From a virus (lineage: Duplodnaviria > Caudoviricetes), in the IMG/VR virus record IMGVR_UViG_3300027754_000037: 64,000 nt of DNA; one strand, 5' to 3'. The notes under the pieces were generated by a model. The model ran no database searches. It worked only from the letters and a program-made list of their open reading frames with translations, and was not told the origin of the DNA. The position numbers and the translations under genes were made by a program. Positions 5,495 through 22,595 of this stretch are shown piece by piece (positions within the stretch are counted from its first letter, which is position 1; each line of letters starts with the position of its first letter).

Positions 5495-5722
5495 ATGGAA
5501 GTCCAAGTCAACGATATTGTTCAAATCAATCCAGAAGTCAACCACCACGACGGTTTCTGGGCCGGAAACCTACTTGTAGTCACAGAAGTCAAAAGTTGGG
5601 GAGTTCAAGGTTATTGCAGAACACCTGAAGGCTATGCATATATGCGCCTCAAAAATGACCAATACGAAAAAGTTGGAGCTTTAGTCTGGACTCCTGAAAG
5701 CATAGTTAAGGAGAAATCATGA
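5495..5722 (+). CDS. Hypothetical protein (SH3-like small beta fold)
   Basis: SD GGAG; VTEVKSWGVQGY motif. Confidence 0.55.
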   Translation: MEVQVNDIVQINPEVNHHDGFWAGNLLVVTEVKSWGVQGYCRTPEGYAYMRLKNDQYEKVGALVWTPESIVKEKS

Positions 5723-5904
5723 ATGCACCAGATGGAGAAATGAAACTTGTGGTTTGGAAAGAAGAAAAAAACAAATGGCTATGGCAGATCGAAGAAAATG
5801 GCAAAAAAATAAAAGGTCGAAATGTGGATGGCAAAGCAGAATCATTTCAAGAAGCATATACCGCAGCTAAAAAGAGATTGCTGCAAGAAAAAAGAAAAGA
5901 GTAG
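5719..5904 (+). CDS. Hypothetical protein
   Basis: ATGA overlap with upstream ORF; SD AAGGAG. Confidence 0.55.
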   Translation: MNAPDGEMKLVVWKEEKNKWLWQIEENGKKIKGRNVDGKAESFQEAYTAAKKRLLQEKRKE

Positions 5905-5966: not shown

Positions 5967-6722
5967 ATGGGAATTCATAGAGGCACCACAAGACCAGATG
6001 GCAAAATGTTTTGGGCATATCGATTCAGATACGGCAAAAAAACAGAAATTTGGATCAAACCAGAACAGTACCAAAGACGAGAAAACACACGAATTGCCTA
6101 CTCAAAGAATAGAAACAATAAAATGCGTGAAAAACTTCAAGATATTCCTCCTGAAGAAAAAAATTATGTGGGAAAATATTGTCCTGAAAAAGGACTTTAT
6201 TTTTTAAAATATTATGTCAGCGGAAACGCAGTATACGGCACTTTAGAAGAACTCAAAACCTTCAGGTTGGCCCAAAAGAAAAGAAATAGAGAATATCTTG
6301 ATCGCTGCAAGGAACAGTTTCCATTACCCAATCTGTCTTTTGGCGATCAACACCCAAACGATCCAAACCTCTTTGTAATCGCTGTCCGTAGGAATAAATT
6401 ATTTTTTGGCTCCCGTGAACAATATGAATCTAAAAGACAAAGACTTAACGAATCCTATAAAAGATACAAGCAAAAAAATCGAGAAATAATCAAGATCAAA
6501 AATAAAAAAATTACTGAAGAAAAAACAAAGTTCCTTAATGAAAATCCTCACCTTAAAAGGTTCAGAGGTGATATTGATCCCCTTTTCAATAAGATATTCT
6601 GGGGATATAACTCCAGACACAACGAAGTCTGGCTTAAACCCGATGTTTACCATCAGAGAAGATTGCGGGCCAATAAAAGGACAAGCTTGCTTAAAAAGAA
6701 CAAAAAACTACCACAGCAATAA
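5967..6722 (+). CDS. Basic hypothetical protein with repeated G-x3-P-x4-F-x2-Y modules
   Basis: SD AAGGAGG; related segments GTTRPDGKMFWAY, GDQHPNDPNLFVI, GDIDPLFNKIFWGY. Confidence 0.6.
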   Translation: MGIHRGTTRPDGKMFWAYRFRYGKKTEIWIKPEQYQRRENTRIAYSKNRNNKMREKLQDIPPEEKNYVGKYCPEKGLYFLKYYVSGNAVYGTLEELKTFRLAQKKRNREYLDRCKEQFPLPNLSFGDQHPNDPNLFVIAVRRNKLFFGSREQYESKRQRLNESYKRYKQKNREIIKIKNKKITEEKTKFLNENPHLKRFRGDIDPLFNKIFWGYNSRHNEVWLKPDVYHQRRLRANKRTSLLKKNKKLPQQ

Positions 6723-6725
6723 TCA

Positions 6726-6908
6726 ATGATCCTTAAAGCAAATACTTATAGCAACAACAATTGTTTTGGATTTGATAATCCAAAATCAATTTGCTGGTCT
6801 ATTTCTAGGTCTTGGTCTTTGTCTTGGCTTTGGTCTTGGTCTTGGTCTTGGTCTTGGTCTAGGTCTGGGTGGTGGTCATCTCATGGAGCAGCAATATATG
6901 ATCCTTAA
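6726..6908 (+). CDS. Ser/Trp-rich paralog 1
   Basis: MILKANTYSNNNCFGFDNPKSICW followed by (SW)n. Confidence 0.55.
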   Translation: MILKANTYSNNNCFGFDNPKSICWSISRSWSLSWLWSWSWSWSWSRSGWWSSHGAAIYDP

Positions 6909-7113
6909 ATCAAATTCATATAGCAATAACAATTGCTTTGGATTTAATACTCCAAAATCAAATTGCTGGTCTATGTCTAGGTCTAGGTCTTGGTCTAGGG
7001 ATTGGGATTGGGATTGGTCTATGTCTATGTCTATGGATTGGTCTTGGTCTAGGTCTATGTCTAGGTCTAGGTCTTGGTCTTTTTGGTCTAAACATTGGAG
7101 TGCCAATATATGA
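6898..7113 (+). CDS. Ser/Trp-rich paralog 2
   Basis: MILKSNSYSNNNCFGFNTPKSNCW followed by S/R/W/M/D dipeptide repeats. Confidence 0.55.
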   Translation: MILKSNSYSNNNCFGFNTPKSNCWSMSRSRSWSRDWDWDWSMSMSMDWSWSRSMSRSRSWSFWSKHWSANI

Positions 7114-7343
7114 TCCTTAAAGCAAATACTTATAGCAATAACAGATGCTTTGGATTTAATACTCCAAAATCAAATTGCTGGTCTAGGTCTTGGTCTGGGT
7201 CTAGGTCTATGTTTAGGTCTATGTCTTGGTCTTGGTCTTGGTCTTGGTCTTGGTCTATGTCTATGTCTTGGTCTAGGTCTATGTCTAGGTCTATGTCTAG
7301 GTCTTGGTCTTTTTGGTCTAAACATTGGAGTGCCAATATATGA
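7110..7343 (+). CDS. Ser/Trp-rich paralog 3
   Basis: ATGA overlap; same leader. Confidence 0.55.
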   Translation: MILKANTYSNNRCFGFNTPKSNCWSRSWSGSRSMFRSMSWSWSWSWSWSMSMSWSRSMSRSMSRSWSFWSKHWSANI

Positions 7344-7576
7344 TCCTTAAAGCAAATACTTATAGCAACAACAAATGTTTTGGATTTAAATATCCAAAAT
7401 CAAATTGCTGGTCTAGGTCTTGGTCTGGGTCTAGGTCTATGTTTAGGTCTATGTCTTGGTCTTGGTCTTGGTCTTGGTCTATGTCTTGGTCTAGGGATTG
7501 GTCTATGTCTAGGTCTTGGACTTATTCTTTGTCTAGGTGTGAGTGGTGGTCATCTCATTGGAGCAGTAGCATATGA
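7340..7576 (+). CDS. Ser/Trp-rich paralog 4
   Basis: ATGA overlap; same leader. Confidence 0.55.
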   Translation: MILKANTYSNNKCFGFKYPKSNCWSRSWSGSRSMFRSMSWSWSWSWSMSWSRDWSMSRSWTYSLSRCEWWSSHWSSSI

Positions 7577-7752
7577 TCTTTAAAACAGCCGCTCATATTG
7601 ATAATTATTGTTTTGGATTTAATAATTCAAAATCTCTGTGCTGGTCTAATTCTAAATATAATTCTAATTCTTGGTCTTGGCTTTTTCCTTGGTCTCAGCT
7701 TTGGGTTAGATTTAAATCTAGATCTTGGTCTAGGTCTAGGTCTAGGTATTAG
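7573..7752 (+). CDS. Ser/Trp-rich paralog 5, divergent, probable premature TAG
   Basis: MIFKTAAHIDNYCFGFNNSKSLCW; homology continues (WSTHWSNNQ) past TAG 7750 to TGA 7780. Confidence 0.45.
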   Translation: MIFKTAAHIDNYCFGFNNSKSLCWSNSKYNSNSWSWLFPWSQLWVRFKSRSWSRSRSRY

Positions 7753-7778
7753 TGGTCAACTCATTGGAGTAATAATCA

Positions 7779-7901
7779 ATGATCCTTAAAACAAATAGCC
7801 ATAGCAATAACAGATGCTTTGGATTTAATAATCCAAAATCAAATTGCTGGTCTTGGTCTGGGGCTTGGTCTTGTTCTAAACATTGGAGCAGCAATCAATG
7901 A
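7779..7901 (+). CDS. Ser/Trp-rich paralog 6 (short)
   Basis: MILKTNSHSNNRCFGFNNPKSNCWSWSGAWSCSKHWSSNQ, read by hand. Confidence 0.45.
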   Translation: MILKTNSHSNNRCFGFNNPKSNCWSWSGAWSCSKHWSSNQ

Positions 7902-7914
7902 TAATCAATGAATT

Positions 7915-8916
7915 TCATGATTTCCTAACTAGATTTCCAAAGAATTGAGAAGTAGCATTATTCCAAGTATAATTTTTAAGCACATGCTCTCTGCAATTGT
8001 TATTTTGAATAAGATCATGACATTCTTTAACCGCAAAGCTCAAGTCAAAATTGGCACAACCTATTCGCTTGCCTCCTGCAACTATTTCACCAGCCCCTTT
8101 ACAATCGTAACAAGCTACTGGTAGTCCACAAGACATTGCTTCGATGTTGACCAGTCCAAATGTATCAAATTTGCTTGGGAAAACAAAGATGTCATGGGAA
8201 GCTAATTCGACAGCCAACTCTTCACCATGCAAGAATCCGGTAAATCTTACATCAGGGTGATAAAAAATACAATTTTCAAGACTTATTCCATCTCCAATTA
8301 TTGTCTTTTCATATCTGTTATCCAATTCTAGAAAATTTTTAATGCCTTTCTCTGGACTCACTCTACCACAATACACTAATTTCTTTCTTTGATTTCTTTC
8401 TTTTGGAATAGGCTTAAATAGCTCTGTGTCTACTCCCCTGCTCCATATTTTTATAGGTGCAGTAAATCCATAAGATTTAAGTATTAGTATATTTTGCTCA
8501 GTAGTAGCCATTACACATTCAGACTTATTATGAAACCATCTCAAATATTTCTTGGATAATCTTAGTCCAAATCCAAATGTTTTATAGAAGAAGTTTGGAA
8601 TATCTGTGTGATAAGCTGTGGTGAATTTATAACCTTTTTTAATACAATATTTTCTAACAGCTAATCCAATTATTCCTTCTGTGCTGATGTGAACATAATC
8701 AGCCCATTCTATTTTATCTTTGATTGTTTTAGTTCTGACCCAGTATGGAGAAAATACATCTTTGGTGAATGGAACTTTGAAACACCAGTAATCAGATGGA
8801 CAAATAACTTTTATAGTATGCCCCATCTCTTCTAATGTTTTTATTGTATTTTTTAATGTATTAACAACACCGTTCACTTGTGGCTCCCAAGCATCTGTAG
8901 CTATAAGTATATTCAT
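7915..8916 (-). CDS. GT4 glycosyltransferase, Agt-like (glyco-diacylglycerol synthase)
   Basis: N-terminus ILIATDAWEPQVNGVV; GRVSPEK; FPSKFDTFGLVNIEAMSCG. Confidence 0.85.
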   Translation of the reverse strand: MNILIATDAWEPQVNGVVNTLKNTIKTLEEMGHTIKVICPSDYWCFKVPFTKDVFSPYWVRTKTIKDKIEWADYVHISTEGIIGLAVRKYCIKKGYKFTTAYHTDIPNFFYKTFGFGLRLSKKYLRWFHNKSECVMATTEQNILILKSYGFTAPIKIWSRGVDTELFKPIPKERNQRKKLVYCGRVSPEKGIKNFLELDNRYEKTIIGDGISLENCIFYHPDVRFTGFLHGEELAVELASHDIFVFPSKFDTFGLVNIEAMSCGLPVACYDCKGAGEIVAGGKRIGCANFDLSFAVKECHDLIQNNNCREHVLKNYTWNNATSQFFGNLVRKS

Positions 8917-9590
8917 ATATCGTTCAAATGAACTGCTCCTTCCATTATGGTTAAATAAGAACAAGGTTTATCAGTCCAGCAACCGGAATTGCCGTACCAT
9001 ATACCTTCTACTAAAGTTGTTTCTTGGAAATGAGTATGACCGCAACAAACTATATCCGCTCCTTTATCTTTCGCATACTTCAACGCTTCTTTCTTTATTC
9101 TGTCACTATTTCTTAGGAATGTTTTACTGTTCTTTTTGGCATAGACAGCGAGAGAATGAGTTCTATCTATTTTCTGCATCAACCAATATATTCCATCAGC
9201 AAAATAAGTAAATATTGGATACTGTTGAATGAAACTGTCAAAACTATCTCCATGTAAACAAATTACTTTTTTATCGCCACTCTCAAAAACAAATTCTTGC
9301 GTAAATTCTAATCCTAAAAGATTGCTGACGAATTCATAATGCCCATCGTGATTGCCGTTAATCCAAACTACTTCTGTTTTTTTAGATAATTTTCTAAGGT
9401 CTTTTAAAATGTGCCAATGTGATTTTGGTAATTTGTTGAAATTTAAACAATCAAATAAATCTCCATTGACAATTAGCTTTTGAGTTTGTATTTTATCATC
9501 TTGTATCTTTTTCAAAAACTTGTCCAAAGCTTCCGCTTGGCAAACATCAGAGCCGAGGTGAATGTCAGATATGATGATCGCATCAAACAT
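8913..9590 (-). CDS. Metallophosphoesterase, PlcP / LpxH (UDP-2,3-diacylglucosamine hydrolase)-like
   Basis: ISDIHLG, NGDLFD, GNHD, HGD, GHTH, NSGCW motifs; overlaps the GT4 start. Confidence 0.85.
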   Translation of the reverse strand: MFDAIIISDIHLGSDVCQAEALDKFLKKIQDDKIQTQKLIVNGDLFDCLNFNKLPKSHWHILKDLRKLSKKTEVVWINGNHDGHYEFVSNLLGLEFTQEFVFESGDKKVICLHGDSFDSFIQQYPIFTYFADGIYWLMQKIDRTHSLAVYAKKNSKTFLRNSDRIKKEALKYAKDKGADIVCCGHTHFQETTLVEGIWYGNSGCWTDKPCSYLTIMEGAVHLNDI

Positions 9591-21066: not shown

Positions 21067-21738
21067 ATGTCCATGAGAAATTTTAGTGAATGGCTAAGTG
21101 ATTTTTCAGAAGTAAGTGATATTAAAATATGTGAATCCAGTTTAACCCGCATGATGTCCCTTCAGAATTCCCCTTGGTGCATCATTACAGCATACCGCAA
21201 GAAGAATTCTGACGGTACAGTTAGAAACAGAGATCAGAACATCGCTGCCAACAGGGTTCTTCGTGGAAAGTTGAACAGCATGAAGATGGGAGTACATCAG
21301 TTGATTGGGCATTGGCGTGAGTGTAAGGACAGCAATATTCCATACCCTCAATGTCCTGAAGAGATGAAAGTCGATGTAATTGAGCGGTCTTACTTTGTGG
21401 CGAAACCCCCAGAAGTGGAAATTGAAGATTTTGAAACGCTTATGCTTCAACTGTGCCGTGAATTTAACCAAGATGGAGTTTTGCTGAGTGATGGGCAATC
21501 CGTCAAGCTTGCCTATCCAAGCGGTGAAAAGGATGTAATTGGCAGCAGCAATATGGCATTGAACAAGGTTGCTCAGGCTTATAGTCAGCACATCATGAAG
21601 CAGAATGTTCCATTTGTGTTTGAAGGGTTTCAACAATTTCATGGGAATGCTGCACGGCAAGGTTCTTCCAAGAGCGGGCTAACCCTTCCACCCTTGGATG
21701 AGAACTTTGTTGTCCTTGCCGCAAAACAATTAAACTAG
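21067..21738 (+). CDS. Conserved phage hypothetical protein with MRNFSEWL motif
   Basis: CIITAYR, E.SYFV, FNQDGVL motifs; SD AGGAG. Confidence 0.6.
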   Translation: MSMRNFSEWLSDFSEVSDIKICESSLTRMMSLQNSPWCIITAYRKKNSDGTVRNRDQNIAANRVLRGKLNSMKMGVHQLIGHWRECKDSNIPYPQCPEEMKVDVIERSYFVAKPPEVEIEDFETLMLQLCREFNQDGVLLSDGQSVKLAYPSGEKDVIGSSNMALNKVAQAYSQHIMKQNVPFVFEGFQQFHGNAARQGSSKSGLTLPPLDENFVVLAAKQLN

Positions 21739-21871
21739 CATTTATAAATTCTTAAATCCTTAAACCAGCGGGAGTTATGACTCTCGTTGGTTTTTTTTTG
21801 GAATTTAATTGTATTTTTCAAACAAAACTTCCTGTAGCACTATAGGTTCCATTACTTTGGAGGAAGTTTCC

Positions 21872-22186
21872 ATGAAATGTCAATGGTGCGTAAAGGCTCC
21901 CGCCGAAAAGGCCGCTGGCGAGTTGTCTGTTTGTAGCAATTGTTACAAGAACATTCAACAGTACCACAAATGTAATGTTTGTGGTTGTGAGATTGATGCA
22001 GACCTTGCGAGGTTTCGTCGCAAGCGTTTTGAAACTGGCACTTGCCTGAGCGCAAGTTGCTCCCGCAAGGAATTGATTGCGAGGGGCAGCGTTTGTTGCG
22101 AGCGGGCGAAGTTGCGTAACTGCTCCTGCGCTCGTAGTTTAGAGTGTGATCGGCATGGCATCCGTTGTACCGGAACCCACAACTAA
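21872..22186 (+). CDS. Cys-rich (zinc-finger-like) protein
   Basis: Multiple CxxC pairs; after promoter copy 6. Confidence 0.55.
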   Translation: MKCQWCVKAPAEKAAGELSVCSNCYKNIQQYHKCNVCGCEIDADLARFRRKRFETGTCLSASCSRKELIARGSVCCERAKLRNCSCARSLECDRHGIRCTGTHN

Positions 22187-22196
22187 GGAGTATTCA

Positions 22197-22595
22197 ATGA
22201 ACCTGCAAATTTCCAATCGAAAGTTAGCTGTTGCTCGTAAGTCTCAAATTTTGGCTTTGGCCAAGGCTGGCAAGCCTCGTCCCAACAGCAAGGATTCCGC
22301 CCTAGGAAAGGCATTGAGGAAATACATCACCAATGGCAGCACCAGCTATGATGGTGAATTCAAGAAAGAAGTTTTGCGGGTTGCCCCAGAGGGATGGTTC
22401 CGCAACGAGGCGGAAAAAAAGAAGGCGAAGCTGGTTAAGATGGCTAAGGCTGGAAAGCCTCGTCCAAGCTTTTCCACTTCTTTGGGTAAGGCATTGAAGT
22501 TTTACACTTCCCATTCCCATACCGCTTACTGTAAAGAAACCACCTTGGAGTTGTTATCAATAGCTCCACATTGGTTTCGACGGGCAGTAATTTGA
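22197..22595 (+). CDS. Basic protein with duplicated ~55-aa domain
   Basis: Two copies of AKAGKPRP..S.LGKAL..Y.......AP.WFR. Confidence 0.6.
   Translation: MNLQISNRKLAVARKSQILALAKAGKPRPNSKDSALGKALRKYITNGSTSYDGEFKKEVLRVAPEGWFRNEAEKKKAKLVKMAKAGKPRPSFSTSLGKALKFYTSHSHTAYCKETTLELLSIAPHWFRRAVI

Follow-up and report, generated by a model that had tools for sequence, protein, structure and literature searches.

Proteins of the Sm fold bind RNA, and the arginine-glycine (RG) tails of eukaryotic Sm proteins, like the arginine-serine (RS) domains of SR proteins, bind both RNA and partner proteins. Here we describe an array of six small open reading frames (ORFs) at positions 6726-7901, on the plus strand, of a 64,000-nucleotide stretch of viral DNA (hereafter, the window), which corresponds to bases 32001-96000 of the 144-kb virus record IMGVR_UViG_3300027754_000037 (Duplodnaviria; Caudoviricetes). 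The core of each ORF, read from its ATG, alternates a variable residue with serine (X-Ser), and the family constitutes an enlarged version of a class of X-Ser repeat microproteins that is widespread in phages and specific to them, and for which no description was found in Pfam, PHROGs, the PDB or the literature searched. The interpretation that we favour, and hold with about even confidence on the strength of the sequence, is that the six units are real, co-transcribed and translationally coupled small genes in the X-Ser frame, and that their peptides are predicted RNA partners of an Sm-like protein.

The six ORFs are arranged head to tail, with ATG starts at 6726, 6898, 7110, 7340, 7573 and 7779, and all of them open with ATGATC(C/T)TTAAA. 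A preliminary description of the array had proposed micro-ORFs composed of a conserved leader of about 24 residues, a variable core of hexamers and a tail, and this layout is borne out. The common N-terminus of 24 residues follows the pattern MI(L/F)KxxxxxxNxCFGFxxxKSxCW, within which twelve residues are invariant in all six units (M1, I2, K4, N11, C13, F14, G15, F16, K20, S21, C23 and W24). The core that follows is built of NGGTCT hexamers and reads as X-Ser with X being W, R, M or G (codon counts: TCT 144, TGG 87, AGG 32, ATG 26 and GGG 10), and most units close with the tail xHWSxx(I/Q) and a TGA stop. Tandem Repeats Finder returned period-6 arrays with higher-order periods of 12, 18, 24 and 36, as well as a 230-nt unit repeat with 89% identity.

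Unit A1 (6726-6908, 60 residues) begins 3 nt past the stop of an upstream gene for a 251-residue protein, so that the array appears as the 3' end of a plus-strand operon. Its tail is altered by a 1-nt deletion to ...SSHGAAIYDP with a TAA stop, and it overlaps A2 by 11 nt. Unit A2 (6898-7113, 71 residues) includes three GATTGG (Asp-Trp) units in its core and carries the tail KHWSANI; its TGA overlaps the start of A3 (7110-7343, 77 residues) as ATGA, and the same overlap links A3 to A4 (7340-7576, 78 residues) and A4 to A5 (7573-7752, 59 residues). A5 is the most diverged unit and is called as protein P0001 in a public library; an early TAG removes the usual tail and leaves a gap of 26 nt before A6 (7779-7901, 40 residues), which has a very short core and ends 13 nt from the stop of a convergent glycosyltransferase gene. 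The proposal that most units are joined by ATGA thus holds at three of the five junctions and fails at A1/A2 and A5/A6, and that of a conserved tail holds for most units, the tail being altered in A1 and missing from A5.

The tail DNA, CATTGGAG-N9-ATGA, sets a GGAG 9 nt before the next ATG and supplies the stop/start overlap. GGAG is found at this spacing upstream of units that follow another unit, and is lacking in front of A1, behind the 251-residue gene. Since a purine/G-rich Shine-Dalgarno peak is seen at -9 across the long ORFs of the phage, the GGAG of the unit tails is a credible ribosome-binding site. Every intact unit has its ATG. The six peptides, in which Ser makes up 22-32% and Trp 10-17% of the residues, have isoelectric points of 8.8-11.9 and net charges of +2 to +10. 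Modelling of A3 with AlphaFold2 reached a mean predicted local distance difference test (pLDDT) score of 47 with no confident fold, which is compatible with disorder and proves neither that nor the amyloid or condensate behaviour that the preliminary description had raised as a possibility. Inspection of the sequence, with no predictor run, revealed neither a signal peptide nor a transmembrane segment, and MILKANTYSNNNCFGFDNPKSICW contains no hydrophobic run.

At the DNA level, the (C)FGFNNPK codons of each leader form a 9-bp palindrome, TTTTGGATT-TAAT-AATCCAAAA, at 6764-6785, 6936-6957, 7148-7169, 7378-7399, 7611-7632 and 7817-7838. A terminator scan additionally flagged the arrays themselves at 7046-7073, 7180-7207 and 7410-7437, as hairpins of 11-12 bp with G-U pairs in which AGGUCU pairs with itself.

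The wider class was delineated by two DNA pattern scans, one for five GGTCT units in phase and the other for five GGTCV units, each of which returned at least 120 viral contigs; the counts given for the class refer to the matches listed, at least 240 viral loci. These contain 179 small X-Ser ORFs, mostly one per locus and up to 10 in tandem (6-10 copies at L142, L164 and L280). An in-frame ATG lies upstream of the array in the X-Ser frame in 127 of 156 arrays, as compared with 20 and 14 in the two remaining sense frames. Within an array almost all serines share one codon, which differs by lineage (TCT in 116 ORFs, TCG in 47, TCA in 15 and TCC in 1), and a single leader family, MNxAxLRAGFD, is found with TCG, TCA or TCT for serine in different contigs. 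Three candidate frames can be considered for such a hexamer array: X-Ser from the ATG, Gly-Leu in the +1 frame and Arg-Pro on the antisense strand. Across lineages it is the serine that is conserved, and not the pentamer, the antisense product or the +1 product, which would become Gly-Arg, Gly-Gln/His or Gly-Pro in the TCG, TCA and TCC lineages, respectively. Because serine is kept while its codon changes, the reading frame is fixed for the class. Leader differences between nine independent pairs, chosen by their Sm proteins, fall on codon positions 1, 2 and 3 in the numbers 21, 22 and 35. From these comparisons the X-Ser frame clearly appears to be the one read at class level. The antisense Arg-Pro frame was dropped as a candidate: just two of the six units contain such an ORF, TGA stops abound on the antisense strand of TCA arrays in that frame, and flanking genes run in the sense direction at three of four loci.

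The window family shares with the class its small, ATG-led ORFs (40-78 residues), each with a short conserved leader outside the repeat, and its NGGTCN core, in which (W/R/G)-Ser is encoded with a single predominant codon for serine (TCT for 144 of 153 core serines). Tandem copies with stop/start overlap are likewise common to both, as is a gene of the associated Sm-fold family in the phage. The closest leader among the matches listed, MI(I)LKANEW...WCDS, belongs to six tandem ATGA-coupled units of IMGVR_UViG_3300036985_008838 that follow an Sm-like gene and use TCG for serine. The family differs from the class in that neither of its two clusters stands directly behind an Sm-fold gene, the arrays instead following the 251-residue gene and an RNA-ligase-like gene. 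It differs also in its 24-residue leader with a CxGx4KSxCW loop, unseen in the at least 240 other listed loci, in the frequent use of Met (ATG) as X and in its 11-12 copies, which form two inverted clusters.

The Sm-fold partner, whose gene in other phages usually stands immediately before the array, was identified from an all-versus-all BLAST comparison of the flanking ORFs at the listed loci, which yielded one large family of proteins of about 100 residues with 93 members, 88 of them directly upstream of an array. In 61 of these 88 an X-Ser-frame ATG lies within -10 to +40 nt of the Sm stop, and 26 of the 61 are exact ATGA overlaps. One ORF in the phage, at 676-978 on the plus strand, is matched by the family profile (E = 6.5e-7, and 2e-21 with another alignment). 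Its AlphaFold2 model (pLDDT 79) comprises an N-terminal helix followed by a strongly bent five-stranded beta-sheet, and the top Foldseek matches in the PDB are Lsm1-7 and archaeal Sm heptamers (probability 1.0, template modelling score 0.65-0.80 by target); as modelled, the protein has the Sm/LSm fold. The gene also gives a sub-threshold Pfam match to DUF2642, and it is followed by a 230-residue ORF and no array. In bacterial genomes the same DNA pattern is common, and an Sm-like gene together with a small X-Ser ORF was seen at 1 of 120 loci, which marks the module as a phage feature.

The preliminary description had counted six units, which is correct for the window, and the family proves to be larger. 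A 26-nt leader pattern has 11 sites in the 144-kb record and none when the pattern is read backwards, so that repetition of the leader is not due to chance. A second cluster (B) of five to six units, inverted with respect to the first, is located on the minus strand at 21560-22412 of the record (G000), 16 kb from the window array and 9.6 kb before the window starts. Its units stand behind the RNA-ligase-like gene and ahead of a Gly/Ala-rich gene, and are joined by four ATGA overlaps and one TAATG. Unit B0 carries a 2-nt deletion and an in-frame TAA, and unit B2 lacks exactly one codon, in frame. A search for the leader in other phages, as had been suggested, returned a single further contig across IMG/VR and the JGI metagenomes, IMGVR_UViG_3300027754_005796, with three units, two of them behind clpX and one in front of a gene for a P-loop protein. 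An earlier, looser DNA pattern for the leader had given chance matches alone, and with the tighter version five of the six metagenome matches are attributable to chance.

The neighbours at the four loci (the 251-residue gene with the glycosyltransferase gene, the RNA-ligase-like gene, ClpX and the P-loop protein) are unrelated, and the presence of units behind such different genes looks like the result of cassette insertion followed by local amplification. On IMGVR_UViG_3300027754_005796 the genes after the units also open with ATGATCCTTAAA (MILK...), at L009:6219-6794 and L010:6180-6230; one is the P-loop protein, which begins MILKMNSTRRRH...GAPGAGKT, and the other a stub of 16 codons. These starts at the array edge look like remnants of unit starts.

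Among deposited phages the searches gave a single match, in Synechococcus phage S-SCSM1, where it falls on the opposite strand within a virion gene of 2,600 residues. No match was obtained for the six peptides in Pfam or PHROGs scans or for A3 in a word-index protein search, and the ESM Atlas gave no usable match. A HMMER search of 1.84 billion representative proteins returned A5 itself and one weak repeat protein, P0002 (L383:1271-1876), which is encoded on one metagenome contig and has 201 residues, a signal peptide and five repeats of about 20 residues, SDMKNLCLGETQDKSxCYSIQ. The repeats retain the CxGx4KSxC(Y/W)S spacing of the leader loop (E = 1e-4), and P0002 hints, weakly, at where the N-terminal module may have come from.

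The arrays grow and recombine by slippage and unequal crossover, as the preliminary description had supposed. This is seen in the higher-order repeat periods, in copy numbers that differ between loci and in unit A3, a chimera that is identical to A4 over its 5' half, including the 5' core, and to A2 at its 3' end, as would be expected after unequal crossover. In four freshwater runs (X2-X5), short-read contigs of the phage break at the arrays. Foreign contigs from these runs pile onto the hexamer arrays at 6788-7527 of the window, with a summed depth above 100,000 in one lake metagenome, and such arrays must therefore be very abundant in freshwater samples.

On the interpretation that we favour, each unit would make a peptide of 40-78 residues that is basic, rich in Trp and Ser and probably disordered. 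It would consist of three parts, namely a 24-residue N-terminal module with two cysteines, the X-Ser core and a short tail whose codons would double as the GGAG ribosome-binding site and the ATGA stop/start of the next unit. The peptides, as flexible chains with cationic and aromatic residues, could join the Sm-like protein in binding nucleic acid, most likely RNA, playing in trans the role of the RG and RS tails of eukaryotic Sm and SR proteins, and the N-terminal module may be a docking or assembly piece. A bolder extension, which we consider unlikely, is that of a split phage Sm ribonucleoprotein. Here hypervariable X-Ser microproteins, recruited in trans by a viral Sm ring, would do the work of RS or RG tails and, during takeover, capture RNA or condense it, with length and copy number tuned by slippage; the peptide genes of the present phage would have moved away from the Sm gene, acquired a docking module with a Cys loop and increased in number to 11-12. 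Stranger still, a +1 reading of these arrays may yield Gly-Leu peptides in addition.

Several observations weigh against X-Ser genes that serve an Sm-like partner. The Sm-like gene is not adjacent to the array, lying 5.7 kb upstream, and no such gene was found in the 173 kb searched of the related contig IMGVR_UViG_3300027754_005796; that the peptides bind the Sm-like protein or RNA is purely what we infer. A codon-position bias in the leaders, on which the preliminary description had staked its reading of the frame, is not seen in the ATG frame: minimum changes number 21, 14 and 15 at positions 1, 2 and 3, with no third-position excess. The ratio of nonsynonymous to synonymous polymorphism (pN/pS) over the leader is 0.62 in the ATG frame and 0.53 in the +1 frame, and for leader nucleotides 40-75 it is 1.02 and 0.49, respectively. 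The preponderance of TCT among core serines compares with a share of 21% among serines genome-wide, and single-base changes at the core serine codons, once duplicated contexts are removed, number 6, 10 and 1 at positions 1, 2 and 3. In units B0 and A5 it is the ATG frame that is disrupted, the +1 frame remaining intact.

One alternative is that the conserved entity is the nucleic acid itself, with (NGGUCU)n repeats of RNA or DNA bound by a protein such as an Sm-like ring, and the ORFs serving to let ribosomes pass or arising as by-products. It would account for a GGTCT that is nearly fixed with N alone free, and for third codon positions that are the most conserved (96% are G or T in the ATG frame of the cores). 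It would also suit the RNA binding generally known for Sm-fold proteins, the self-complementarity of AGGUCU through G-U pairs, the flagged hairpins and the leader palindrome. The last base of the pentamer is, however, T, G, A or C by lineage, while serine and an ATG-led ORF are conserved, and the leaders of one class family show a third-position excess. The fold of whole-unit RNA is not unusual (z = -1.49), and the palindrome, although 89% of its cells are paired and four copies have G-U, exhibits no compensatory changes or covariation. We therefore regard this explanation as improbable.

The frame raises a second alternative, in which the true product, or one of two products if the coding is dual, is a very hydrophobic and membrane-acting Gly-Leu repeat, (M)DLIIQNQIAG(LG)n...LIGAVINDP, read in the +1 frame. 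It would start at a TTG inside the invariant TTTTGGATTT or be reached by read-through or frameshifting, with the ATG frame incidental or both frames used. Within the window family, judged by its substitutions, conservation of the +1 frame appears equal to or better than that of the ATG frame. Besides the low pN/pS of leader nucleotides 40-75 and the integrity of B0 and A5, the +1 core is 93% G, L, C, I, F or V, its variability ranks by codon position as 3 > 1 > 2, as in ordinary coding sequence, and replacements of serine by F, Y, D, H or P, radical in the X-Ser frame, correspond in +1 to exchanges of Leu for Ile or Phe or to synonymous changes of Gly codons. In a variant contig from another lake sample, three of four codon changes are silent in +1, and the leader shows AGC to TCA (Ser to Ser).

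Against a +1 product stands its lack of an ATG and of a Shine-Dalgarno sequence, TTG being its only start. Family unit D2 has a +1 stop at codon 8 and A1 in +1 runs on into A2, so that these two are intact in the ATG frame only, and the in-frame loss of one codon in B2 also counts for the ATG frame. Among the listed arrays of the class, no more than 20 of 156 offer an ATG for the +1 frame, as noted above, and its product is not maintained outside the TCT lineage. TGA is an ordinary stop in this phage, closing 50 of the 124 long ORFs, and the 144 kb encode no suppressor tRNA; general recoding of TGA was dropped on the same grounds. Much of the +1 pattern would moreover be automatic, as repeat units are identical by descent through slippage and a peptide with 35-40% serine should be under strong selection for one well-served serine codon. 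A +1 product accordingly has, in our estimate, only a slim chance of being the correct account. Support for translation in the ATG frame is thus drawn from gene structure and from the wider class, and not from substitutions in the window family. The array provides a case in which repeat identity by descent makes two frames look equally "selected", and a warning for the annotation of genes built from microsatellites.

A further alternative retains translation in the X-Ser frame and differs in the target, the peptides acting on the host envelope as Trp/Arg-rich, membrane-active molecules of the indolicidin or tritrpticin kind, for lysis, depolarisation or superinfection exclusion. The Trp content and positive charge of the peptides would be suitable, and the alternation might bring W, R and M together on the same side of a beta-strand. 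The absence of a signal peptide or transmembrane segment argues the other way, as does the class-wide link to an Sm-fold gene, of the RNA type, and not to lysis genes; many class members, furthermore, are Gly/Arg-rich rather than Trp-rich. An envelope role, too, has little probability in our view. The least credible proposal, and one that we judge very improbable, is one of those made in the preliminary description, by which the units would be precursors of secreted peptides or of ribosomally synthesized and post-translationally modified peptides, their leader recognised by a modifying enzyme and their serine-rich hypervariable core modified: a leader with two conserved cysteines, a variable core and several precursor copies lend it a resemblance, yet the N-terminus lacks the hydrophobic core of a signal peptide, neither cluster is flanked by a YcaO, lanthipeptide, radical-SAM or protease/transporter gene, no modifying enzyme (as had already been remarked for the array) is found beside any of the four loci, which have no neighbour in common, and the sole conserved partner across the class is the Sm-fold protein.

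The genes around the window array give little indication of function. The operon is headed by two small genes at 5495-5904 on the plus strand, of which the 75-residue ORF matches phrog_19062, of unknown function (E = 1.6e-15), and the 61-residue ORF weakly matches the C-terminal part of HNH-endonuclease PHROGs. The gene of the basic 251-residue protein (5967-6722, plus strand), to which the array is coupled, follows; its protein has no Pfam or PHROG match, and its last 20 or so nucleotides resemble a unit tail. The protein contains an internal repeat, with FWAYRFRYGKKTEIWIKPEQYQRR near the start and FWGYNSRHNEVWLKPDVYHQRR near the end. In three further phage contigs, relatives of this gene are followed by a deaminase-like gene and not by an array, and conserved synteny of the array with the gene was accordingly dropped. 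On the minus strand at 7915-9590, genes for a family 4 glycosyltransferase (GT4) and a calcineurin-like metallophosphoesterase, which overlap each other at 8913-8964, run towards the array, only 13 nt separating the facing stop codons, and no terminator-like site was found between the array and the GT4 transcription unit. Overall, Pfam and PHROGs scans of the array neighbours returned GT4, the metallophosphoesterase and unknowns.

That X-Ser microproteins occur in at least 240 viral contigs and are regularly paired with an Sm-fold gene points to a phage module for the handling of RNA that has yet to be studied. To this the window adds an expanded form, separated from the Sm-like gene and equipped with a new N-terminal module, together with evidence of cassette insertion behind unrelated genes. 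If the peptides do bind RNA or form condensates, they would constitute a simple natural system for dipeptide-repeat behaviour in bacteria.

Among known systems, the Trp/Arg-rich antimicrobial peptides (indolicidin, tritrpticin and synthetic (RW)n) are, like the phage peptides, short, cationic and rich in Trp. The likeness is one of composition, and the phage peptides differ in having no export signal, serine at every second position and a partner gene of the RNA type. The serine-rich repeat glycoproteins of Gram-positive bacteria, such as GspB and Fap1, share (Ser-X)n repeats and are modified by GT4 enzymes, and in the phage a GT4 gene lies 13 nt from A6. That gene is, however, convergent and absent from the other three loci, and GspB and Fap1 are huge, secreted, cell-wall-anchored adhesins in which X is A, V, E or T, whereas the phage peptides have 40-80 residues and no signal peptide. 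The Sm proteins with Arg-Gly tails (SmD1, SmD3, SmB and LSm4) and the RS domains of SR proteins present, as in the phage, an Sm fold and a disordered dipeptide repeat of Arg with Ser or Gly. In the phage the repeat is a separate polypeptide, encoded by separate ORFs, is rich in Trp and derives from a slippage-prone microsatellite, with no methylation or phosphorylation machinery evident; the likeness is a fold match of the Sm part, and homology is not claimed. Finally, the dipeptide-repeat proteins of the C9orf72 GGGGCC expansion arise, as could those of the phage, from a hexanucleotide array that is open in several frames, each specifying another dipeptide repeat (in the phage X-Ser, Gly-Leu or antisense Arg-Pro). 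The C9orf72 expansion is pathological, whereas the phage array is contained in ATG-led ORFs with a ribosome-binding site and has been maintained in evolution.

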